This document shows positions 1,191 to 26,725 of a stretch of 64,000 nucleotides of DNA, in pieces. Below the pieces are notes generated by a model. It saw only the letters and a program-made list of their open reading frames with translations. It had not been told where the DNA came from and did not search any database. Every line of letters begins with the position of its first letter. Positions within the stretch are counted from its first letter, which is position 1. The stretch is from an uncultured Victivallales bacterium (GTDB lineage Bacteria; Verrucomicrobiota; Kiritimatiellia; UBA8416): positions 17,696 through 81,695 of the forward strand of contig CAZNWT010000005.1 in assembly GCA_964576795.1 (NCBI GenBank). Direction: 5' to 3'. A program made the position numbers and the translations under genes.

Positions 1191-2825
1191 ATGTCTAAGT
1201 TGACTAAGATTCTTATTAGTGAGGGCTTGATTTCTGCCGAACGCTTGGCCGAGGCCGAGGCGCTGGCAGCATCCTCGTATAGTCCATTGGTATCCGTCCT
1301 TGTGCAGCAAGCGTTTGTGGACGAGTCTGAGTTTCTTCGAGTCTATGGACGACTGCACGGCCTTGAGTTTGTTTCCTTGCGTGACATAACGGTTGATGCC
1401 GGTGCGGCTCGAAGCATTAGTGCCAAACTTGCTGCGCATTACCATATTGTTCCCATTCGCCTCACATCGGGAAGCATTACCATTGCGGTGTCTGACCCGC
1501 TTGATTTACGAGCCGCCGAAGATATTGAGACGAATTTGGGGCTACGCGTTGAACGTGTTTTGGCCTGTCGTGCCGACATTGAGGGGGCACTCCAACGGCA
1601 CTACGGTGTGGGTGCAGACACGGTCGAACGCATTTTGGCTCGGGAACCGGAGCGTGACGTTGAGACGCTTGAGTCTGATTCGTTGGACATTGAGCAACAG
1701 GCGTCCGATGCGTCGGTCGTACGGCTGGTAAATCAACTTCTCAAAGAAGCCATCAAGGATCGGGCAACGGACATTCATTTTGAAGTTCACCGTAACGGTG
1801 TGGTTGTACGGCGTCGTATAGATGGGATTCTCTACGATACGAATGTGTCGAGTCGGATGCTTTCGCTCTATCCCTCTATTGTCTCCCGCATCAAGCTGAT
1901 GGCGGGGCTCAATATTGTTGAGCGCCGGTTGCCTCAGGATGGGCGCGCCCGGGTCTCGATTGAGAGCCAGAATTTCGACCTGCGGGTTTCGATTGTGCCC
2001 GCAATGCATGGCGAAGATATTGTGATTCGCATTCTACCCTCTGCAATGATTTTTGATCTTGGCGAACTTGGGTTTAACGAAACGCAACTTTCTATGCTTG
2101 GGGGGTTGATTGAATCGCCCCACGGCATTTTGTTTGTCACTGGTCCCACGGGCAGTGGAAAGAGCACAACCCTGTATGCGTGTATGAGTCGTCTCAATAC
2201 GCGAGAGCGCAAGATTATTACGATTGAGGATCCGGTTGAGTATGAATTGCGCGGCATTACGCAGACGCAAGTCAATGCCAAGATCGGGTTAACCTTTTCG
2301 CATGCACTTCGTAGCATGTTGCGGCACGATCCCGACGTCATGATGGTGGGTGAGGTGCGAGATCGTGAGACCGCAGAAATTGCGGTGCAAACGGCGATGA
2401 CGGGACATCTTGTTTTGAGCACACTGCACACGAATGATGCAGCGGGGGGGGCGGCGCGATTGATCGATATGGGAATTGACCCCTATCTCATTACCTCGAC
2501 CGTGCAGGCGTTCATGGCGCAGCGGCTTGTGCGTACCATTTGCACAGACTGCCGGGAGTCCTATGAGGTCGACGGCCGCACGTTATATCGTGGGAAGGGG
2601 TGCGATCGTTGTAATCACTGTGGGTTCTGGGGGCGTATCGCCATATGCGAGTTCCTGCCGTTGACAGATGAAATTAGCGAATTGATTCTGGCAAAAGCGT
2701 CAGCGCATCAAATTCGTGAGCGTGCCAATGCATTGGGTATGAAAATGTTGATTGATGATGGTTGGGCTAAGGTTGAGCAAGGACTGACGACCGTCGAAGA
2801 GATTATGCGAGTTACAGCGGTCTAA
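1191..2825 (+). CDS. gspE: Type II secretion / type IV pilus assembly ATPase (GspE/PilB family)
   Basis: N-terminal GspE_N-like domain, Walker A GPTGSGKST, Asp and His boxes, and a C-terminal tetracysteine motif CTDC…CDRCNHC. Confidence 0.9.
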   Translation: MSKLTKILISEGLISAERLAEAEALAASSYSPLVSVLVQQAFVDESEFLRVYGRLHGLEFVSLRDITVDAGAARSISAKLAAHYHIVPIRLTSGSITIAVSDPLDLRAAEDIETNLGLRVERVLACRADIEGALQRHYGVGADTVERILAREPERDVETLESDSLDIEQQASDASVVRLVNQLLKEAIKDRATDIHFEVHRNGVVVRRRIDGILYDTNVSSRMLSLYPSIVSRIKLMAGLNIVERRLPQDGRARVSIESQNFDLRVSIVPAMHGEDIVIRILPSAMIFDLGELGFNETQLSMLGGLIESPHGILFVTGPTGSGKSTTLYACMSRLNTRERKIITIEDPVEYELRGITQTQVNAKIGLTFSHALRSMLRHDPDVMMVGEVRDRETAEIAVQTAMTGHLVLSTLHTNDAAGGAARLIDMGIDPYLITSTVQAFMAQRLVRTICTDCRESYEVDGRTLYRGKGCDRCNHCGFWGRIAICEFLPLTDEISELILAKASAHQIRERANALGMKMLIDDGWAKVEQGLTTVEEIMRVTAV

Positions 2826-2837
2826 TCGAGGGCACCG

Positions 2838-4046
2838 ATGCCGAGCTATATCTACAAGGCTAAAGAGGGGCCAAGCAAGACTGTTCAAGGGGAACTGATT
2901 GCAGAGTCCGAGGCGTCCGCGATTGCGCGTATTGAGGCGATGGACTTGATTCCCGTGTGGGTTCGTCCCAAGGGGGCGGGGCATGCGGTGAGCGCACGGC
3001 CTTCGCAACGTGGCATTCGTTCGCGCGACATATCCGTTCTTACTCGCCAGCTTGCAAGTATGTTGCGTTCCGGGGTTCCGATTCTGAGAGCCCTAAACAC
3101 GATTGGGGATCAAACCGAAAACCGGCGGTTGCAGGCTGTTATTAGTGACCTTGAGGCCTCCATTCGCGATGGCAGCATGTTGTCAGAAGGGATGCGGCGT
3201 TACAAAAAGCTGTTTCCAGATCTTTATGTCAACATGGTTGAGTCAGGCGAATCCGGAGGGGTTCTTGATACCATGCTCTTTCGACTTGCTGAAGCGGGGG
3301 AAGTTGAAGAAGAGAATCGCCGAAAAGTACAGGCAGCCATGGCTTATCCGGTGCTGGTTGCGGTTGTCGGTTTTATTACCGTTTTAGTGCTGCTGTCTTT
3401 TTTTATGCCACGTGTGGTCGTGCTGTTTGAGGGATATCAGCAATTGCCTCTCCCCACTCAGATTCTGATTGGGGTTAGCACCTTCTTCTCCAGATATTGG
3501 TATTGGCTTGTTTTTGCAGTGGTTTTGGTTGTTCTCGTCTTCCAACGTCTGGCGGCGTTGGACCGCGGACGCACCTTTGTGGATGGGCTGAAACTCCGGT
3601 TTCCACTGTTGGGTCGATTCTTGCGGGATGTTGATCTGGCACGCTTTGCCCGGACGTTTGCATTGTTGATTGCTTCCGGAGTCTCCATTGATCGTGTATT
3701 GCGGTTGAGTGCAAATTCTATTCATAATGCCGTTTTGCGTAACGAAGTGGAGTCGATCCGAACCCGAACGCTGAAGCATGGCATGACGCTTTCGGCAAGC
3801 ATTAAGGGCTCGGTATTCTTTCCCCCATTTGTTGGCAATATGTTGGCAGTGGGAGAGGAGACAGGGCACATTGATGAATCGTTGAATGAAGTTGCCCGTT
3901 TCTATGAGGGGTGCGTGGATCGACAGAGCCGTATGGCGACCTCTCTTATCGAACCCATACTCCTGCTTGTTGTCGGCCTGCTTGTTGGATTCATTGTGTT
4001 TGCCATGTTGTTGCCCATTTTTGAAATTGGGAGTGGGCTGCGGTAG
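2838..4046 (+). CDS. gspF: Type II secretion / T4P platform protein (GspF/PilC family)
   Basis: About 400 aa with a duplicated T2SSF-type domain architecture and three transmembrane segments. It lies directly after gspE. Confidence 0.85.
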   Translation: MPSYIYKAKEGPSKTVQGELIAESEASAIARIEAMDLIPVWVRPKGAGHAVSARPSQRGIRSRDISVLTRQLASMLRSGVPILRALNTIGDQTENRRLQAVISDLEASIRDGSMLSEGMRRYKKLFPDLYVNMVESGESGGVLDTMLFRLAEAGEVEEENRRKVQAAMAYPVLVAVVGFITVLVLLSFFMPRVVVLFEGYQQLPLPTQILIGVSTFFSRYWYWLVFAVVLVVLVFQRLAALDRGRTFVDGLKLRFPLLGRFLRDVDLARFARTFALLIASGVSIDRVLRLSANSIHNAVLRNEVESIRTRTLKHGMTLSASIKGSVFFPPFVGNMLAVGEETGHIDESLNEVARFYEGCVDRQSRMATSLIEPILLLVVGLLVGFIVFAMLLPIFEIGSGLR

Positions 4047-4055
4047 TCTGAGTAA

Positions 4056-4086
4056 ATCGGAAATTGGAAATTGGAAATTGGGAAAC
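4056..4086. repeat. Tandem GAAATTGG repeats
   Basis: cggaaattggaaattggaaattgggaaa. Related degenerate copies occur at 24948-25022 and reverse-complemented at 11228-11262. Confidence 0.6.
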
Positions 4087-4195
4087 AGAACCTGACATTT
4101 CATGCCAGCCAACCCCCTGTCGTCGTACCTCCGTCGGATTATACAGGGTGGAAACTTACGGGTACTAGGCGTCGTGATGAATTGGTGGTTATTTC

Positions 4196-4288
4196 AACGT
4201 CCAACAACCAACGTCCAACGCCCAACTTCCAAGAGAGGGTTCCTCTTCGTTTGGCGTTGGTTGTTGGACGTTGGTTGTTGGGCGTTCG
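4196..4288. repeat. Palindromic CCAACG-rich dispersed element, copy 1
   Basis: caacgtccaacaaccaacgtccaacgcccaac…gttggcgttggttgttggacgttggttgttgggcg forms a long hairpin. A related copy lies at 16316-16388. Confidence 0.65.
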
Positions 4289-5087
4289 ATTTGAGTTTCA
4301 GGTTTGGCGGGGCTGGGGAGTGGCGTGGTTGCTGATTCTGGTTGCCGCATCGACGCTCGCTGGAGCGACTCCCGATGTGTGGGACACCCTCAAAGGCAAG
4401 CACTTTATCGTTTCCCATCAGGGAAATGCAGCCTTTGCGGCAGAGGTTCTGCACCGGGCAGAGTTGTATTACGATTCAATTGTGCAGCAACTCGGGTTTA
4501 AGCGAGTTGATAACTTCTGGCTTTGGGAGCGTCGCGCCCGGATAAAGCTATATGCGAGTCGTCAGGCGTTTATCGAAAGCACGGGGGCTCCTGATTGGGC
4601 GACGGCCAAGGCCAATGTCCGTGACCGCACAATTGAATCCTTTGGTAACAGTAGGGTGTTTCTCGAATCCAGGCTTCCCCATGAGATGGCTCACCTTTTT
4701 TTTCGCGAATACATTGGATTCACGGGTGCGGTTCCGCTCTGGCTGGATGAAGGAGTTGCTCAGTGGTGTGAGTTTGAGCCTGGGCCATCTACGCCGCCCG
4801 CTTTGCGGAAGTGGATTCCGCTACGGGTGATGACGACCATGACTGTAAATGAAATTATGGATGTTGATCGGGCACAACTTTTCTATCGCGAATCCGCTTC
4901 TGTCGTTGAGTATTTGGTTACGACCTATGGCAAAGGTGCATTCACAAAATTTTGTCGACAGTTGCGGGATGGAAAACGTTTGGATAGGGCTTTGCGGTTT
5001 ACTTATCCAAACACCATCTCTACACTGGAGCTATTAGAACAACAATGGTCTGTGTGGCAGATTGCACGCAGTATTCGCAATCGCTGA
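4275..5087 (+). CDS. Secreted gluzincin-like metallopeptidase (Peptidase_MA-like; HEMAH…E), start uncertain
   Basis: HEMAHLF followed by WLDEGVAQ gives the HExxH + E zinc-binding signature, and there is a hydrophobic signal-like segment WLLILVAASTLAGA. The ORF is open from 4071, but the upstream part is repeat sequence. Alternative starts are TTG 4275/4278 or GTG 4320. Confidence 0.5.
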   Translation: MLGVRFEFQVWRGWGVAWLLILVAASTLAGATPDVWDTLKGKHFIVSHQGNAAFAAEVLHRAELYYDSIVQQLGFKRVDNFWLWERRARIKLYASRQAFIESTGAPDWATAKANVRDRTIESFGNSRVFLESRLPHEMAHLFFREYIGFTGAVPLWLDEGVAQWCEFEPGPSTPPALRKWIPLRVMTTMTVNEIMDVDRAQLFYRESASVVEYLVTTYGKGAFTKFCRQLRDGKRLDRALRFTYPNTISTLELLEQQWSVWQIARSIRNR

Positions 5088-6567: not shown

Positions 6568-7650
6568 ATGATCATGGGTGCCGCAAATTTTAAGGAGTGT
6601 TGCCCAAATCGAAAGAGCGCCTTCCTCCTTCAGAAATCTCGCTCCGGGGGGAGTGTTCTTATCCTTGTGTTGTGGGTTCTTTTCTTTCTGGTGGCCCTGA
6701 CCGTGGCTGTTGGAACTCACGTTTCAGCCGCTATTACCGCCGCCGAACGGCTGTGGTCGCGTATGGAAGGCCGCTCTCTTGCAGAGGCTGGTGTTCAGCA
6801 GGCGTTCGCGATAGCCATGCAGCAGACCAATGAGTGGGATGGTATCGCCCGTGACGCATGGAATCGTGATCTCTCGGCTTTTACTGATATTTCCATCGGT
6901 GATGGGTTGTGTTCTATCCACTATTGCACGGTTGGGGCCGATGGAAGCGTCGTAACGAACGCCGGTATTGTGGGTGAGGATGGGAAACTCAACCTCAATA
7001 CGATTGTGAAGAGCGATGAGTCGAAACTGGCGTTTGGGGTGCTGATGACAACGGTCGGCGAGCTTGACGCCGAGCGTGCTGATAAGGTCGTGGCAGCAGT
7101 GTCAGATTGGATTGACGAAGACGATGAAATATTGACAGGGGGAGCGGAGAGTGGCTACTATGCGAGTCTGTCACCCTCGTATAAGTGCGCCAACGCTCCG
7201 ATGCGTTGTATGAGTGAATTTAGGCTTGTTAAAGGGGTGAGCAGAGAGCTGTATACACGGCTGGTTTCCTGTTTAACCGTGTATGGGTCTGAGCTAGTGA
7301 ATGTGAACTGTGCACCCGAACCGGTTATAGCGGCTCTGGCACAAGCGCATGCGGAAGGGACGACCGATCTTGATGCCTGTGCGTCATTGGCGGAAAAAAT
7401 AGGGAATTTTCGTAAGGCCGGAGGGGCGTTTCGCGAATCTGATGATATTGGGAGTCCTCCCGAGGATATTGGGCTTACAGGAGATGAGCGCGCCTTGTTT
7501 AGGGGAATGCAGTCGGGACTATATTGGAGTTCAACCGCTTTTCGTGGGGTTTCCGCAGGTGTTTTTGAGGGTGAGGGGCATTCTGGGATGTCGATTGAGT
7601 TTGTTTTGGACACGGTAAGTGGAAGTTTTGTCTACTGGCAAGAACGGTAA
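6568..7650 (+). CDS. gspK: GspK-like minor pseudopilin
   Basis: N terminus …SGGSVLILVLWVLFFLVAL is the GspK-type variant leader. Its ~360 aa size and position after three pseudopilins fit GspK. Confidence 0.55.
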   Translation: MIMGAANFKECCPNRKSAFLLQKSRSGGSVLILVLWVLFFLVALTVAVGTHVSAAITAAERLWSRMEGRSLAEAGVQQAFAIAMQQTNEWDGIARDAWNRDLSAFTDISIGDGLCSIHYCTVGADGSVVTNAGIVGEDGKLNLNTIVKSDESKLAFGVLMTTVGELDAERADKVVAAVSDWIDEDDEILTGGAESGYYASLSPSYKCANAPMRCMSEFRLVKGVSRELYTRLVSCLTVYGSELVNVNCAPEPVIAALAQAHAEGTTDLDACASLAEKIGNFRKAGGAFRESDDIGSPPEDIGLTGDERALFRGMQSGLYWSSTAFRGVSAGVFEGEGHSGMSIEFVLDTVSGSFVYWQER

Positions 7651-7689
7651 GTGGTGTTTGCATTTTCAGTATAGGATGAGGCGGAACTG

Positions 7690-9162
7690 ATGGGAAGCAA
7701 GGGTGCAAAGCTAAAACGTTCGGAGGGGGAGCCCCGCAAGATCGTCGTGCTTGTCGAGATTGGTAACGACTGGATCAAGCTGATCCAAGCCGAATCCAGT
7801 AAACGCGGCGTTACCCTTTCAAAGGTTCACCTTGAGCCGATTGACGTAGACACAAACGTTGTAGATAGCATTGCATCTGCGCTGAAAGCCAAGAAGTTCA
7901 GTATGACTGCGGTATTGACATGCCTTCCACGACAAGCGGTGAATCTGCGATTATTGGAGCTGCCGTCTACGGATAGTGCCGAAATAGCTGACATGGTCGA
8001 GCTTCAAATCGGTCGCCAAACGCCCTATTCCCGGGATGAGATTCTTTCCGACTACAAGCCGTTGGGACGCACACGACAAGGGACGTACACGCGAATTATG
8101 CTGGCAATCGTGCAGCGTAGCGTGGTGCGTGAACGTTTCTATGAAATCGAACAGGCCGGTCTGGATGTTGAACGCATGGGCGTCAGTTCTGAAGGGGTGT
8201 TGAATTGGTTTCTGTACCGAATGAAGGATAAGCCTCAGGATAAGGCTGTGGCCCTTATTGATGTGGATTCCTTTTATACGCAAGTGCTTGTGCTCCAGCA
8301 TGGACGCGTCATTTTCACCAAGAGCATTCTGGTAGGAGCCAAACAGTTGCTGGAGACGAGCGAAGAAAGTCGCGGCCAGCTTACCCAAGAGATTCAGAGT
8401 GCATTTCAGTCTTGCCGCAGTGAGCTTCGTGCTGGCGAGATTGAATCCATTGTTCTGTCGGGTTCAGGTGTTAATATTGAGGGGTTGGCTGAGGAGTTGA
8501 GCAGCGGGCTGTCGCTGCCTTGCGAAGGCCTTGATTCTTTGGCGGACGTCAAATTGGGCAAGGGGGCGGGAGATTTGGGTGATCCTCGTTATACAACAGC
8601 CTCTCTGACGGCCCTCATTGGCATGGCGTTGAATCCTGACGCCCTTGAATTTGATTTAATTCCAGATGTGGTTCGTATGCGCAGGACGCTGCTGCATAGC
8701 GCGTTATCGTCCACGATGTTGGCGGCTCTGGTTATGGCGGCGATGGTGTCCGCCTCGCTGTATGCGATGTTGTCCTATGCGTTCAAAACGCATCGTCTTA
8801 ACGCATTGCGTGAAGCTGTGGCCATAACGCAACCCGCTGTGGTGAAGGTTGAGCGTATGCTTGAGGTCATCCGCGAAACCAACGAACGCCAGGACTCGCG
8901 TTTTTCCATGGTGAATCTGTTACCAGCCATTCACGGTTGCGTCCCCAAAGATGTCTATTTTGAGTCCATTGATGTTGATGTAGAGAAAAAAAATGTCTCT
9001 TTGTCTGGAACAGCACCTGCCCGAAAGGATATTCGGGACCTGCTTAAAATGCTTGTGGATTCACCGTTTTTTGGCGATGTGAGTGAAGATGGACGCGTCA
9101 CCATGGATAAGGATGGACGCTTTAAGTTTCGGGCTGTTGCCAAGTTTGAGGAGGATTCCTGA
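7690..9162 (+). CDS. GspL-like / PilM–PilN-type inner-membrane assembly protein
   Basis: An actin-like cytoplasmic domain of ~330 aa (LSGSGVNIEGLAEEL) is followed by one TM (LAALVMAAMVSASLYAML) and a ~130-aa C-terminal periplasmic region. Confidence 0.55.
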   Translation: MGSKGAKLKRSEGEPRKIVVLVEIGNDWIKLIQAESSKRGVTLSKVHLEPIDVDTNVVDSIASALKAKKFSMTAVLTCLPRQAVNLRLLELPSTDSAEIADMVELQIGRQTPYSRDEILSDYKPLGRTRQGTYTRIMLAIVQRSVVRERFYEIEQAGLDVERMGVSSEGVLNWFLYRMKDKPQDKAVALIDVDSFYTQVLVLQHGRVIFTKSILVGAKQLLETSEESRGQLTQEIQSAFQSCRSELRAGEIESIVLSGSGVNIEGLAEELSSGLSLPCEGLDSLADVKLGKGAGDLGDPRYTTASLTALIGMALNPDALEFDLIPDVVRMRRTLLHSALSSTMLAALVMAAMVSASLYAMLSYAFKTHRLNALREAVAITQPAVVKVERMLEVIRETNERQDSRFSMVNLLPAIHGCVPKDVYFESIDVDVEKKNVSLSGTAPARKDIRDLLKMLVDSPFFGDVSEDGRVTMDKDGRFKFRAVAKFEEDS

Positions 9163-11149: not shown

Positions 11150-11226
11150 CGGGGCGAGGGCGCCCCACCCCCATTATTGCAAGAATATGTTTGACTGCAG
11201 AAATGGAGGTGGACCGCCCTCGTTCC
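11150..11226. repeat. ~77-bp dispersed element with inverted termini, copy A
   Basis: ggggcgagggcgcccc…ccattattgcaagaa…aatggaggtggaccgccctcgttccg. It is ~85% identical to the copy at 14842-14917. Confidence 0.7.
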
Positions 11227-11276
11227 GAATATCTGTCCATTATTTCCAATTTTGCATTTTCCAATTTCAAATCTAC

Positions 11277-11304
11277 CCTAAGGGAAACCCTTAGGTCTTT
11301 TTTT
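11277..11304 (+). terminator. Rho-independent terminator
   Basis: The perfect hairpin cctaaggg-aaa-cccttagg is followed by tcttttttt. Confidence 0.7.
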
Positions 11305-11305
11305 G

Positions 11306-11461: not shown

Positions 11462-11496
11462 GTACTAAGGGAAACCCCTAGTACTGCTATTTTGAG
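11462..11496 (+). promoter_or_regulatory. Second near-identical hairpin plus U-tract in the 5' leader (attenuator-like)
   Basis: gtactaaggg-aaa-cccctagtac is followed by tgctattttg. It lies ~40 nt upstream of the RBS (gagaggga) and ATG at 11536. Confidence 0.4.
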
Positions 11497-14803: not shown

Positions 14804-14841
14804 TGTCGTGGAGGTGGCCCGCTCTTGGGTTGCTTATGTCC

Positions 14842-14917
14842 GGGGCGAGGGCGCCCTAGCTCCATTGTTGCAGGATGAGGGTAGATTGCTGTAATGGAGG
14901 TGGGACGCCCTCGTCCC
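14842..14917. repeat. ~77-bp dispersed element with inverted termini, copy B
   Basis: ggggcgagggcgccctagctccattgttgcagga…taatggaggtgggacgccctcgtcccg. It sits in direct orientation relative to copy A. Confidence 0.7.
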
Positions 14918-14945
14918 GCGAGCGCAGGGAGGGGGGGGAGGGGTT

Positions 14946-15900: not shown

Positions 15901-16812
15901 TTAGAGGCTGGTGTTGATCATTTTGTATGCGATGTGGCAGCACTCGGGAGCCAAGTCGAGGTAGTGGGGCATGAAGGATGCCAGAATGGGCTGGATTTGT
16001 TCCTGTTGCTGTTGGGTGTAGCGTGGGGTTGGAAGTCGTTGGAAGTCGTGCGTGGCTTGCCAACGCCTTAGAATGGCGAGTGCATCACCGGATATGGGTA
16101 ACAGTAGGGTTCTGTTTACTGTGGGTTTGCATGCCTGACAGAGGATGCCCCCATGCGTTGTCGAGAATAGTGTGCTCCCCCCTGTGTTAACGTTTTGTGT
16201 GCAACTTGTACATTGGAGTAGTTGTGGTGGTAGCCCCAGAAGTGTAAGCATCTGAAGTTCGAACCACAAGAGGAGGGCGGGCAGATAGGTGGGAGGTGGG
16301 AGGAGGCAGGTCGATGGAGAGGCTTTCAACGCCCAACATCCAACGCCCAACGCCGAACGTCCAAGTTGGGGATTTTCTTTGCTGGATGTTGGACGTTCAA
16401 AATGAAGTTTCGAATCAGGAGCAATATGGCCAAGGCATGCTGCAAGGAGGCTGTATAGCTCAGGGGCGTGGGCACCATCGGGGGTTGCAACGGCGGCAAG
16501 ATGGCAGAGGTAGCTTATGGCAGCGGTGCGCTGCCAATCGCCGCGGCAGAGGCGCCGGGCATCAAGCGCGGTGCACTCCTTGACAATATGAAGACCGTTG
16601 TGATCACGGCTATAGAATAGGAGTTCGCACCGATAGCCGATGTCATACTGACCGAAAACAGGGCTTTTGGGGCGACAGGCACCCTTGATGGCAGTCGCAA
16701 TTTTGCCATGCTCCGGCGTCAGCCATGTAACCACATGTGAGGTGTTTGAGAAAGGGGCCACCCGTAGTGTTATGGCCTCTGTCTTGATTATTGTGGAAGC
16801 TGGCATAAACAA
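15901..16812 (-). CDS. recO: DNA repair protein RecO with an in-frame insertion
   Basis: RecO N-terminal OB-fold region (ITLRVAPFSNTSHVVTWLTPEHGKIATAIKGA) and a C4 zinc finger CTSC…x19…CQAC. At 303 aa it is ~50 aa longer than usual, and the extra segment coincides with the repeat at 16316-16388. Confidence 0.7.
   Translation of the reverse strand: MFMPASTIIKTEAITLRVAPFSNTSHVVTWLTPEHGKIATAIKGACRPKSPVFGQYDIGYRCELLFYSRDHNGLHIVKECTALDARRLCRGDWQRTAAISYLCHLAAVATPDGAHAPELYSLLAACLGHIAPDSKLHFERPTSSKENPQLGRSALGVGCWALKASPSTCLLPPPTYLPALLLWFELQMLTLLGLPPQLLQCTSCTQNVNTGGSTLFSTTHGGILCQACKPTVNRTLLLPISGDALAILRRWQATHDFQRLPTPRYTQQQQEQIQPILASFMPHYLDLAPECCHIAYKMINTSL
16316..16388. repeat. Palindromic CCAACG-rich dispersed element, copy 2 (inside recO)
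   Basis: caacgcccaacatccaacgcccaacgccgaacgtccaag…ctggatgttggacgttc. It shares ccaacgtccaa / caacgcccaac motifs with 4196-4288. Confidence 0.6.
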
Positions 16813-24936: not shown

Positions 24937-25022
24937 CGGGGGGGGGGTAAATTGGGAAATTTGAAATTGGAGAATTTGAAATTTGGAAATCTCAAATTGG
25001 CAAACCTGAAACCTGAAAGCTG
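24937..25022. repeat. G10 homopolymer followed by degenerate GAAATTGG-type tandem repeats
   Basis: cggggggggggtaaattgggaaatttgaaattggagaatttgaaatttggaaatctcaaattggcaaacctgaaacctgaaagctgaaatgg. Confidence 0.7.
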
Positions 25023-25024
25023 AA

Positions 25025-26725
25025 ATGGGGAGTGGAATGCTGGGCCTCTTTTCTGTTCCAATGCTGCTTAGGACCTTTGCGGTTCTCCTTTCGAGTTTTC
25101 TGTTGGCATGTGCGTTTCCGCTACCACCGGTGTTGACATCCATGGAGGGGGCATCCGCCGCTTGGCTGGGACTGATTCCGCTGATATTGGTGTCCCGACT
25201 GACGCGCCCGAAGCTGGCCTTCTGGTGGGGATGGGTGTGTGGTTTTCTGTTTTGGCTGGTTTCGGCTGCTTGGGTGCTGGAACTTCGTAATTCCTGGGGA
25301 TGTTTGCCGGTCGTCATTTTGGCGTGGGTTGCCCTAGCTGCCTATTGTGCTCTCTACATGGGGGTCTTTGCCTATTTGCTCGCAAGCGTCTGGCCACTAC
25401 GTTCTGAAGGAAATGAGAGTGCTCGATCGATCGGGTCTCTTCGTCGCGTAGCACTTGTTCTGCTGACGCCCGTAATTTGGGTAGGTTGTGAATATCTCCG
25501 TGCGGTGCTGTTTACAGGGTTTCCGTGGAATGCTCTGGGGGTCAGTCAGTACCGCAATATTGCGATTATTCAGACCTCAGGCTGGGGCGGTGTCTATGCT
25601 GTCTCTGGACTCATTGTCCTCTTGAATGCCGCTATTGCGATGACGGTGTTGCGCATCGCTGTTGAGTTGCGTTGTAGGGAACGTCGACGCCGTCGGGTTC
25701 ACTTTGAACTGATGATAGGGCTGATTGCGGTTGCGATGAGTTGGTCGTGGGGGGTGCGCACTGTGCGGCGTTCGGATCGTATCTCTGCCGAAGATGCGCA
25801 TATTAGGGTTACAGCGATACAGCCTCAGACGCGTCAGATTCAGAAATGGTCTGAGGCGCATTGCGCGTCTATTTATCGCGTGCTTCAGGAGCAGACGGAG
25901 CTTGCGGTAATGGGGCGACCGGATCTTGTGATTTGGCCGGAAACGGCCATTCCTGATTTGCTGAGAACAGCACCAACCGTTCAGGAGATGGTGTCTGCTT
26001 TGGTGATGCCCGGCACGATGTTGTTGGTCGGGGCTATGGATTTTGAGCAATCTGATATGGATACAGTCTATTACAATGCAAGCTTCCTTGTTGACGCAGA
26101 CGAAGGCATTGTGGGGTCTTATCGTAAGCGTCATCTTGTTCCCTTCGGGGAGTACATTCCCTTCGAAAATCAGATTGGGTTGATCAAACGTCTGGCGCCG
26201 TTGGGATTCAGTTGTATGCCGGGAGGGAAGAGTGGCCTAATGGAGCTTCCTGTTGGAAGTGGCTCCCCAAATCAAACTGCGTTGTTCGGTGTTTTGATCT
26301 GTTTTGAGGATGTGTTCCCCTATTTGGCGCGCCGGGATGTCAAGACGGGTGCCCGTTTTCTTGTCAACCAGACAAATGATGCCTGGTTTGAAGACTCTGC
26401 CGCGTCCCGTCAGCACATGGCCAATGCTGTTTTTCGGGCGGTTGAAAATCGTGTGCCACTGGTGCGTTGTGCAAATACTGGTGTTACCTGCTATGTGGAC
26501 AGTTTTGGGAGAATCATGGAGATGCTTGAGGGGGACGAGGGTTGCACCAACCTCAGGGGATTTTCGGTTTCTGAGATGCGTTTGGCTGCGGCGGGGATGC
26601 CGATGACACCCTATACGCGATTTGGCGATTGGCTGTTTGCACGGCCTTGCGCTATGATAACCTTGGTTTTGTTAATGATGGCGTGGTTGAAATCCTCGAG
26701 ATGGAGAGCAAAGCGTCGCGTTTGA
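25025..26725 (+). CDS. lnt: Apolipoprotein N-acyltransferase
   Basis: N-terminal multi-TM region plus a CN-hydrolase domain (LICFEDVFP, CANTGVT). Confidence 0.8.
   Translation: MGSGMLGLFSVPMLLRTFAVLLSSFLLACAFPLPPVLTSMEGASAAWLGLIPLILVSRLTRPKLAFWWGWVCGFLFWLVSAAWVLELRNSWGCLPVVILAWVALAAYCALYMGVFAYLLASVWPLRSEGNESARSIGSLRRVALVLLTPVIWVGCEYLRAVLFTGFPWNALGVSQYRNIAIIQTSGWGGVYAVSGLIVLLNAAIAMTVLRIAVELRCRERRRRRVHFELMIGLIAVAMSWSWGVRTVRRSDRISAEDAHIRVTAIQPQTRQIQKWSEAHCASIYRVLQEQTELAVMGRPDLVIWPETAIPDLLRTAPTVQEMVSALVMPGTMLLVGAMDFEQSDMDTVYYNASFLVDADEGIVGSYRKRHLVPFGEYIPFENQIGLIKRLAPLGFSCMPGGKSGLMELPVGSGSPNQTALFGVLICFEDVFPYLARRDVKTGARFLVNQTNDAWFEDSAASRQHMANAVFRAVENRVPLVRCANTGVTCYVDSFGRIMEMLEGDEGCTNLRGFSVSEMRLAAAGMPMTPYTRFGDWLFARPCAMITLVLLMMAWLKSSRWRAKRRV

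Follow-up and report, generated by a model that had tools for sequence, protein, structure and literature searches.

We examined a block of repeats that follows gspF, the gene for protein F of a type II secretion system (T2SS), in a 64,000-nucleotide window (the whole stretch of DNA that was analysed, itself part of a 102-kb metagenomic contig) of an uncultured Victivallales bacterium. The block lies between gspF and a downstream peptidase gene and consists of a short tandem array of GAAATTG units and a long hairpin built of CCAACNN units. It fits the heptanucleotide class of simple sequence repeats (SSRs) in each structural feature examined, and it is a further example of this known repeat class. 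We consider it probable that the block comprises two independent heptanucleotide SSR arrays, of the type surveyed by Mrazek and similar to the short tandemly repeated repetitive (STRR) sequences, which lie in a lineage-specific operon spacer and act on the operon mRNA.

The upstream cistron gspF (2838-4046, plus strand; Pfam T2SSF, E = 2.7e-61) ends with the stop codon TAG at 4044-4046. The letters tctga separate this codon from an array in sense orientation at 4052-4083, plus strand, that reads GTAAATCG, three GAAATTG units and GG, with the exact GAAATTG x3 and the following G at 4060-4081, and that trails into the degenerate units GAAACAG and AACCTGA as far as ~4095. Tandem Repeats Finder (TRF) placed the array at 4054-4081 with a period of 7, 4.0 copies and 95% matches, and GAAATTGGAAATTGG gave 3 matches where 0.02 are expected by chance. 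A composite block at this place had been described in an earlier note made from the letters alone; every part that it described is present, and each occurs above chance. It had read the array as three GAAATTGG octamers, and the repetition holds but the 8-nt unit does not: the true period is 7, because the three octamers overlap by one G. The final codons of gspF (FEIGSG, 4020-4037) also contain TTTGAAATTGGG, the unit of the downstream array, with GAAATTGG at 4023-4030, and related gspF genes encode the same FEIGSG peptide with other codons; the array may have grown from this unit, or the likeness may be accidental. Behind the array lie ~110 nt of non-repetitive spacer (4084-4193, plus strand), whose 5' half (~4084-4150) is kept in L127, the closest relative, and faintly in L129. 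Rfam gave no match to 4084-4193, and a scan of 3800-4600 returned no sigma-70-like promoter. A small open reading frame (ORF) at 4102-4335 (77 aa) was considered and rejected, its ATG being kept in L127 but the L127 ORF ending after 25 codons. CsrA sites were also rejected as a general explanation, given that GGA is found in the 4060-4083 array but is missing from most other GAAATNN arrays.

The second part of the block is a hairpin at 4194-4289, in which six CCAACNN units of the left arm (4194-4235) face their complements in the right arm (4248-4289). Of its 42 pairs, 5 are G-U, and the apical loop lies at ~4240-4243. The minimum free energy (MFE) of its RNA is -66.8 kcal/mol, compared with -32.0 +/- 3.8 kcal/mol for dinucleotide shuffles (z = -9.06; 0/200 shuffles as good). 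The palindrome therefore folds very strongly, as had been supposed, but it is built of 7-nt units and not of the 6-nt units CCAACG and CGTTGG that had been proposed for it. Those of the left arm read TCAACGT, CCAACAA, CCAACGT, CCAACGC, CCAACTT and CCAAGAG, and TRF reported period 7 at 4195-4232 (5.4 copies) and 4256-4281 (3.7 copies). Searched at 2 mismatches, CCAACGTCCAACG gave 14 matches against 2.0 expected. Because the arms are built of 7-nt units, they can pair in three alternative registers. The CCAAC/GTTGG arms are stop-free in all six frames, bar one stop at the extreme edge, and therefore an insert of this kind is tolerated in recO and a spurious long ORF starts at 4071. At 96 nt the hairpin lies outside the 20-40 nt of repetitive extragenic palindromic (REP) sequences and it has no GTAG head. 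Rfam 15 at gathering score returned two tRNAs as the only matches in the window, and a permissive search returned only sub-threshold eukaryotic microRNA-precursor hairpins (37.6 bits, where 100 are needed). A G-quadruplex reading, as in Xanthomonas, was discarded, there being no runs of three or more G within CCAACNN or GAAATNN units.

The two arrays are not isolated features. By a lag-7 self-match scan the window contains 7 period-7 arrays, where shuffled control sequence gave 0.3, and it contains none of period 4, 5, 8 or 11. When the window was stitched to the neighbouring pieces of the same contig, L132 and L133, for a census of 82.7 kb, 12 period-7 arrays were obtained, compared with 0, 0, 4, 0, 5, 1, 0 and 5 for periods 4, 5, 6, 8, 9, 10, 11 and 12, respectively. 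All period-7 arrays are intergenic save an in-frame insert in recO. The genes assigned by Pfam comprise gspE (1191-2825), gspF (2838-4046), Peptidase_MA_2, pseudopilins, gspK, PilM/N-like, MORN, recO, secA and lnt. As the earlier note had seen, the GAAAT-type motif recurs after secA, where 24947-25027 (plus strand, sense) holds GTAAATTGG, units of the GAAATTT/GAAATTG type and then AAACCTG x3.4 (TRF period 7 at 24956-24998 and 25002-25025); these arrays fill the secA-lnt spacer and stop ~10 nt short of the lnt ATG (25037). The reverse-complement copy that had been noticed in the long spacer after the MORN-repeat gene is there as well, at 11228-11272 on the minus strand, in the form of degenerate GAAATTG-like heptamers (TRF period 7, 4.3 copies, 72% matches) with one exact GAAATTGG at 11261-11268. 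In a second T2SS-F/pseudopilin operon, on the flanking part of the contig, sense-strand GAAATNN units occupy 6 of the 9 intercistronic spacers, for example as TAGggtggatcaGTAAATTTGAAATTTGAAATG and TAGttagtaaGTAAATCTGAAATCCGAAATTTGAAATCC....

These arrays share an orientation and a boundary. Over 83 kb, GAAATNNGAAAT is found 10 times on the plus (sense) strand and 0 times on the minus strand (0.13 expected), and the boundary GTAAAT-N1-2-GAAAT 5 times on the plus strand and 0 times on the minus strand (0.04 expected); the secA copy is a sixth GTAAAT boundary, with N3. In six spacers the array begins 0-12 nt past the stop codon, and one array abuts the ATG (TAGggtggatcagtaaatttgaaatttgaaATG). At window-equivalent positions 69059, 25037 and 72826 the ATG follows 0-45 nt after the end of an array, and the array of the gspF locus lies ~200 nt or more upstream of the next start. 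Such positions of the arrays, behind one stop codon and ahead of the following start, would agree with a shared site that acts on the mRNA. GAAATNN arrays cluster in the spacers of the T2SS, pseudopilin and secA-lnt operons; the same contig also has operons for ATP synthase, ribosomal proteins and rpoBC, and these contain none. Hairpins also stand beside GAAATNN arrays in pseudopilin-operon spacers, at L133 15053-15118 (-42 kcal/mol, z = -2.6) and L133 19546-19625 (window-equivalent ~72649-72728; -52 kcal/mol, z = -4.8), both with sequences unrelated to CCAACNN. One of these L133 hairpins has the form GTCATTCCGAGCGAAGTCGAGGAATCTC..., and the motif GTCATTCCGAGCGAAG... also occurs in intergenic hairpins of other bacteria. 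The GAAATNN and CCAACNN families had been thought to travel together, but they meet only at 4052-4289: in recO CCAACNN is accompanied by AGGTGGG, after secA GAAATNN is accompanied by AAACCTG, and in the pseudopilin spacers GAAATNN stands with unrelated hairpins. Since the neighbours of GAAATNN differ in this way, and the hairpin of L127 differs too, a single composite element is disfavoured and what recurs is a layout, an array plus some stable hairpin within the spacer of an operon.

The gspF-peptidase junction was compared with those of L127, L129, L130 and L131 and with the gene table of the P0109 contig; a metagenome scan for orthologous junctions with the peptidase as query gave one 3' fragment, L128. 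The spacer measures ~250-280 nt here and ~270 nt in L127, 155 nt without heptamers in L129 and 14 nt in L131, and in the P0109 contig the two genes overlap. It is thus a lineage-specific spacer in an otherwise tightly packed type II secretion operon. L127, whose flanks have ~80% nucleotide identity, carries an orthologous array of GAAATTC, GAAATTC and GAAATGG, and two of these three units share one G-to-C change, which points to tandem-repeat evolution in place and fits this better than transposition. At the position of the CCAACNN hairpin, L127 holds a non-homologous 88-nt hairpin (-48.5 kcal/mol, z = -4.7). Among 133 loci, GAAATNN x3 was found only in this contig and L127, and L006, L129, L130 and L131 (~51 kb) contain at most one weak period-7 array.

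The CCAACNN family is spread far more widely. An exact scan for CCAACNN x4 on both strands of 185,579 species genomes (596 Gb; at least 120 loci) found arrays of four or more units in at least 120 genomes, where ~1 chance match is calculated for 20 specified bases. Among the matches listed are Cyanobacteria, Acidobacteriota, Verrucomicrobiota, Planctomycetota, Lentisphaerota, Kiritimatiellia, Bacteroidota, Chloroflexota, Proteobacteria, Actinomycetota and others. The 120 listed loci hold 330 period-7 arrays, compared with 18-78 for other periods, and arrays of other heptamer units often adjoin CCAACNN there. Paired as hairpins, the units occur in Acidobacteriota (L031, L037, L049, L075, L101) and in genomes of the Planctomycetes-Verrucomicrobia-Chlamydiae (PVC) group (L032, L053, L056, L081), the latter with the same GAACRYCCAAC...GTTGGRYGTTC build and often at a stop codon; the L053 hairpin is 79% identical to that of the window. 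With both motifs found on the same contig outside the window and in relatives, the repeats are not a peculiarity of this one stretch. A Verrucomicrobiota metagenome-assembled genome (MAG), L018, has two near-identical copies of more than 150 nt (1544-1769 and 7602-7827), in which a CCAACRY array is followed by the CTGTAGCCGCGGGCGCTGACCGCGGGG hairpin sequence; this repeat is possibly a true dispersed element that uses the same heptamer.

As the earlier note had stated, the palindrome family recurs inside recO (minus strand, 15901 to ~16806-16812), with 16327-16359 and a shorter right arm at 16382-16398. Here it forms an in-frame insert of ~117 nt (39 codons) at 16285-16404 on the minus strand, revealed by a split RecO_C Pfam match and by alignment. 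On the plus strand the insert reads AGGTGGG x3.6 (16287-16310), CAACGCC x5.4 (16327-16359), a loop and the short complementary arm, with TRF period 7 at 16287-16311 and 16327-16364. Across the 41 nt of the left arm, TTTCAACG and TCCAAG included, it is 85% identical to the CCAACNN of the gspF locus, 12 kb away. Folded as recO sense RNA, the insert is predicted to give a hairpin of -38.3 kcal/mol (z = -3.55). Judged by RecO homologues, the organism belongs to uncultured Kiritimatiellia/Verrucomicrobiota-like PVC bacteria. The 39-40 inserted residues, located between two helices, are absent from P0003/L006 (82% identical) and from most homologues. An AlphaFold2 model of RecO (mean pLDDT 87.6, pTM 0.85) shows no secondary structure in the insert (residues ~131-171; pLDDT 49-64). 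In P0002/L005 this site is taken by an insert of 35 residues, the common parts being only the CCCACCTCCC end and some GGCGTT/GGACG remnants. The insert loop of RecO is a hot spot, in which P0002, P0008 and P0010 hold other inserts of 12-35 residues (alignment columns ~135-178). In L005, a close relative, gspK bears at 2520-2640 (minus strand) a 48-residue in-frame N-terminal insert with the CCAAC-type sequence GAAAACATCCAACAGCCAACAAGG, which encodes NIQQPTRNFQ and has no hairpin partner; it is a second coding-region case of the CCAAC-type repeat. In L005 and L006 recO adjoins gspK in convergent orientation, and in the window the two genes lie ~8 kb apart (gspK 6568-7650, recO 15901-16812); this spacing is a local rearrangement between close lineages.

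Among long SSRs, heptamers form the most abundant class in many bacteria and are attributed to polymerase slippage, according to the survey of Mrazek (2007), as summarised in PMC4679880 and PMC4692102, and heptameric STRR sequences of Calothrix have been known since 1990, according to the citation in PMC4692102. The repeats of the present contig resemble these long SSR/STRR heptamers in their head-to-tail 7-nt units, the excess of period 7, the mostly intergenic location, the lineage-patchy occurrence and the presence of several families per genome; as for STRR, CCAACNN-type units also occur in many cyanobacteria among the matches listed. They differ in belonging to a PVC MAG with its own unit families (GAAATNN, CCAACNN, AGGTGGG and AAACCTG) and in the GAAATNN arrays with a conserved GTAAAT 5' boundary, a 10:0 sense bias of GAAATNNGAAAT and one degenerate inverted copy. 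The GGGAATC arrays of Xanthomonas are mostly intergenic, vary between close relatives and include some convergent inverted pairs (Rehm et al. 2015, PMC4692102). The likeness extends to heterogeneous arrays of ~4 units, mostly intergenic with few intragenic, to some convergent inverted stem-loop pairs, and to differences in length and sequence between close relatives at the same intergenic site; unlike the G-rich, G-quadruplex GGGAATC, CCAACNN and GAAATNN lack G-runs, and the inverted pair here is one continuous 42-bp hairpin.

A third comparison concerns heptamers close to start codons. The TAACTGA repeats of marine Beggiatoaceae lie just 5' of start codons and at times within ORFs (MacGregor 2015, PMC4679880), with S1, Csp or CsrA proposed as their binders (PMC4679880), and Nostoc heptamers beside the recF and recO start codons alter reporter expression (bioRxiv 10.1101/2022.06.06.494920); arrays near start codons have accordingly been proposed as translational regulators (PMC4679880; bioRxiv 10.1101/2022.06.06.494920). 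Like TAACTGA and the TTTTGAA and GACYAAT heptamers of Nostoc PCC 7120, the present arrays are short, in sense orientation and placed between a stop and the next start, sometimes touching the ATG, with a weak or missing Shine-Dalgarno sequence in some cases and occasional copies at permissive ORF positions, and for both a translational or post-transcriptional role is a proposal. The unit sequence is different, the arrays begin on the stop-codon side and long hairpins stand alongside.

We propose that the arrays grow and homogenise by slipped-strand mispairing, a mechanism already suggested for the excess of 7-nt repeats in bacteria at large, and that the inverted CCAACNN pair may have arisen by inverted duplication or template switching; a stop-free hairpin could then persist in-frame within permissive protein loops, as in recO. 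Both parts would be transcribed in the gspE-gspF-peptidase-gspG... mRNA as an intercistronic module, in which the hairpin may buffer mRNA decay or attenuate read-through or ribosome access to the peptidase start. The A/U-rich, unstructured GAAAU array might serve as a single-stranded platform for S1, for another RNA-binding protein or for RNase E-type cleavage. GAAAU fits the loose RN/WUU cleavage preference of RNase E.

Several points weigh against this combination of slippage and a role on the mRNA. The functional role of the blocks is inferred from position and predicted folding. No copy-number polymorphism was seen, and the recO block has equal length in four assemblies, though selection would act against a frameshift there. 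A GTAAAT boundary repeated at six loci hints at targeting, dispersal or selection beyond slippage alone, and the GAACRYCCAAC...GTTGGRYGTTC build shared by distant PVC genomes is likewise a hint of something that slippage alone would not be expected to give. Some members of the CCAAC family can spread, as is indicated by the L018 array, which belongs to a dispersed repeat longer than 150 nt. The present census extends over 83 kb of the genome. GC skew is unusually high and positive all along the window (1-64000; +0.09 to +0.23 per 4 kb), minus-strand genes included, and the window probably falls entirely within one replichore, the plus strand being the leading one; since the flanking genes are also nearly all on the plus strand, the sense bias is inseparable from a replication-strand bias.

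The bias and the boundary also bear on the idea of a dedicated cis-regulatory RNA, in which GAAAUNN arrays, with or without a hairpin, would be bound by one specific protein and co-regulate secretion and pilus operons post-transcriptionally. This explanation overlaps the functional half of the reading that we prefer and adds specific recognition to it. The sense orientation of the arrays, five of them with the GTAAAT boundary, and their concentration in T2SS, pseudopilin and secA-lnt spacers speak for it, and precedents are found in the Beggiatoaceae TAACTGA repeats (PMC4679880) and the Nostoc heptamers (10.1101/2022.06.06.494920). However, the unit sequence varies past GAAA(T), one copy is inverted (11228-11272), relatives do without any spacer, the pseudopilin copies could stem from tandem gene duplication and the binding protein is putative. 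We therefore regard such a dedicated RNA as possible but doubtful.

Mobility offers another route to the same distribution: a composite palindrome of the REP/REPIN (a hairpin of paired REP sequences) or miniature inverted-repeat transposable element (MITE) kind, as the earlier note had suggested, could have been copied to intergenic sites, and sometimes into genes, by a transposase acting in trans. The 85% identity of the two CCAACNN left arms over 41 nt at a distance of 12 kb, the patchy presence in close relatives, the in-frame inserts in recO and L005 gspK, the two near-identical L018 copies of more than 150 nt with an array and a 78-nt hairpin family of REP-like appearance in the same genome would all agree with this. 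As in REP sequences and bacterial interspersed mosaic elements (BIMEs), extragenic palindromes lie within operons, and an intercistronic stem-loop could shield the upstream mRNA from 3' exonucleases. The REP sequence between malE and malF, an mRNA stabiliser, is the analogy for such an intercistronic stem-loop. The recO copy also recalls the Rickettsia palindromic elements (RPEs), being a palindromic insert of ~120 nt that keeps the reading frame and occupies a surface loop in a conserved protein.

The details of the copies do not bear this out. No conserved non-repeat core, consistent target-site duplication or GTAG head was found, and copy number and unit sequence vary. Target-site duplications, judged by eye at six hairpins, are inconsistent and the termini are not fixed (the window copies, L032, L053, L056 and L081); a comparison of recO genes that have or lack the insert leaves its boundaries ambiguous. 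The arms are of unequal length between copies (5 versus 2 units), the GAAATNN and CCAACNN families co-occur at one locus only, the GAAATTG array is orthologous in L127 and changed in place, the whole hairpin is an inverted repeat without a separate core, and no transposase is among the called genes of the 83 kb examined. From REP/BIME sequences the block differs in its 96 nt without GTAG head, its tandem-heptamer arms, its two copies with unequal arms per 83 kb and the absence there of a REP-associated tyrosine transposase (RAYT), and from RPEs in its unrelated, heptamer-built sequence in another phylum, any mobility of the recO copy being putative. Because the CCAACNN class spans more than 10 phyla among the matches listed, a mutational or biophysical cause is preferred over one element family, and a mobile element of this kind is unlikely. 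We consider it rather less probable still that both ideas hold together, namely that the sense-strand GTAAAT/GAAAUNN array and an adjacent long hairpin of any sequence form a dedicated module, read by a specific RNA-binding protein or RNase and setting secretion, pseudopilin and envelope expression, and that the CCAACNN hairpins are a dispersing PVC-wide element which also colonises coding loops in-frame.

The hairpin might also act as an intrinsic terminator or attenuator that separates gspEF from the genes behind it. In favour of this, the very stable stem runs into a T-rich stretch (CGATTTGAGTTTCAGGTTT), the corresponding position in L127 is occupied by another hairpin, and a terminator consensus scan gave 3 sites against 1.3 expected, two of these being in the right arm of the hairpin. 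However, the T-tract is interrupted (TTTGAGTTTCAGGTTT), the L127 and L053 hairpins have no U-tract, the 42-bp stem far exceeds that of a typical terminator and the same family lies within the coding sequence of recO, a place at which termination would do harm, which makes this an improbable function.

The Peptidase_MA_2 gene (4251-5087, plus strand; Pfam E = 2.2e-10) has several candidate starts, TTG at 4251, 4257, 4275 and 4278, all in the right arm of the hairpin, GTG at 4320 and TTG at 4329. The only in-frame starts 5' of the conserved VWRGWGV, which the window and L127 share through synonymous changes, are the TTGs of the right arm; GTG 4320 and TTG 4329 are the alternatives. The pipeline called an ORF of 338 aa at 4071-5087 that runs through both repeat blocks, and for more than 100 peptidase homologues (250-290 aa) the alignment begins no earlier than the signal peptide (VAWLLILVAAS...). 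Because the homologues begin there, both blocks belong to the spacer, which measures ~250-280 nt, and reach no further than the first codons of the gene if they overlap it at all, and the call from 4071 is, judged by this alignment, an over-extension. That translation begins at TTG 4071 and yields a genuine 338-aa peptidase precursor, extended at its N-terminus by a stretch that includes the peptide QRPTPN, is very improbable: gene callers picked this ORF and the frame is open from 4071 here and, in its equivalent, in L127 (P0107, 338 aa; P0108, 333 aa), but the homologues start later, over the hairpin part the extension in L127 bears no relation to that in the window, the stop-free composition of the repeats accounts for the open frame and a signal peptide would not function with 85 residues in front of it. 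The earlier note was right that the plus strand encodes QRPTPN in both CCAACNN copies, which follows from the likeness of their DNA sequences, but no product corresponds to it, as recO lies on the opposite strand and the peptidase homologues start past the hairpin. The 338-aa ORF through the gspF-locus block has a 100% identical copy in a separate Joint Genome Institute (JGI) assembly (P0107), and the recO copy has the same length in four independent assemblies (L001-L004). An assembly artefact is unlikely because of these matches, and it was ruled out as a candidate.

Equally far-fetched is a contingency (phase-variation) locus in which gain or loss of one 7-nt unit switches recO or downstream expression, since, although heptanucleotide repeats within or ahead of coding regions are reported to drive phase variation in neuO and HMW1A and the recO arrays lie within a reading frame, imperfect units (77-83% matches) suppress slippage and the length is identical in four assemblies from different samples.

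Other repeats and tracts were observed in the window. A second, non-heptamer family consists of a 78-nt element at 11150-11227 and 14841-14918, 79% identical and in the same orientation, with both copies downstream of gene ends and the hairpin closed by GGGGCGAGGGCG/CGCCCTCG(T/C)YCC (-48 and -54 kcal/mol, z ~ -6.5); it has no above-threshold Rfam match and looks REP-like. After the MORN gene, CCTAAGGGAAACCCTTAGG and then a T7 run at 11277-11305 look like an intrinsic terminator, and a similar ACTAAGGGAAACCCCTAGT lies 190 nt downstream (11465-11483). A G10 homopolymer at 24938-24947, directly 3' of the secA stop codon and 5' of the heptamer array, and a G-rich run, gggaggggggggagggg, in the convergent spacer 14920-14940 are potential slippage tracts.

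Taken together, we favour two independent heptanucleotide arrays that probably act on the operon mRNA. Why bacteria gather 7-nt tandem repeats, and whether they have any role, has been a question since the STRR sequences (1990) and the 2007 SSR survey, and the CCAAC-type heptamer is found in at least 10 phyla. Such repeat blocks also mislead gene callers, the downstream ORF being called at 338 aa compared with about 255-280 aa. This contig is a compact case, with sense arrays that have a defined 5' boundary after stop codons and with interchangeable hairpins in secretion operons. Since close relatives do without the spacer, the regulatory hypothesis is testable through expression across natural variants, and the array-plus-hairpin layout would gain interest if it is indeed a recognised regulatory module.

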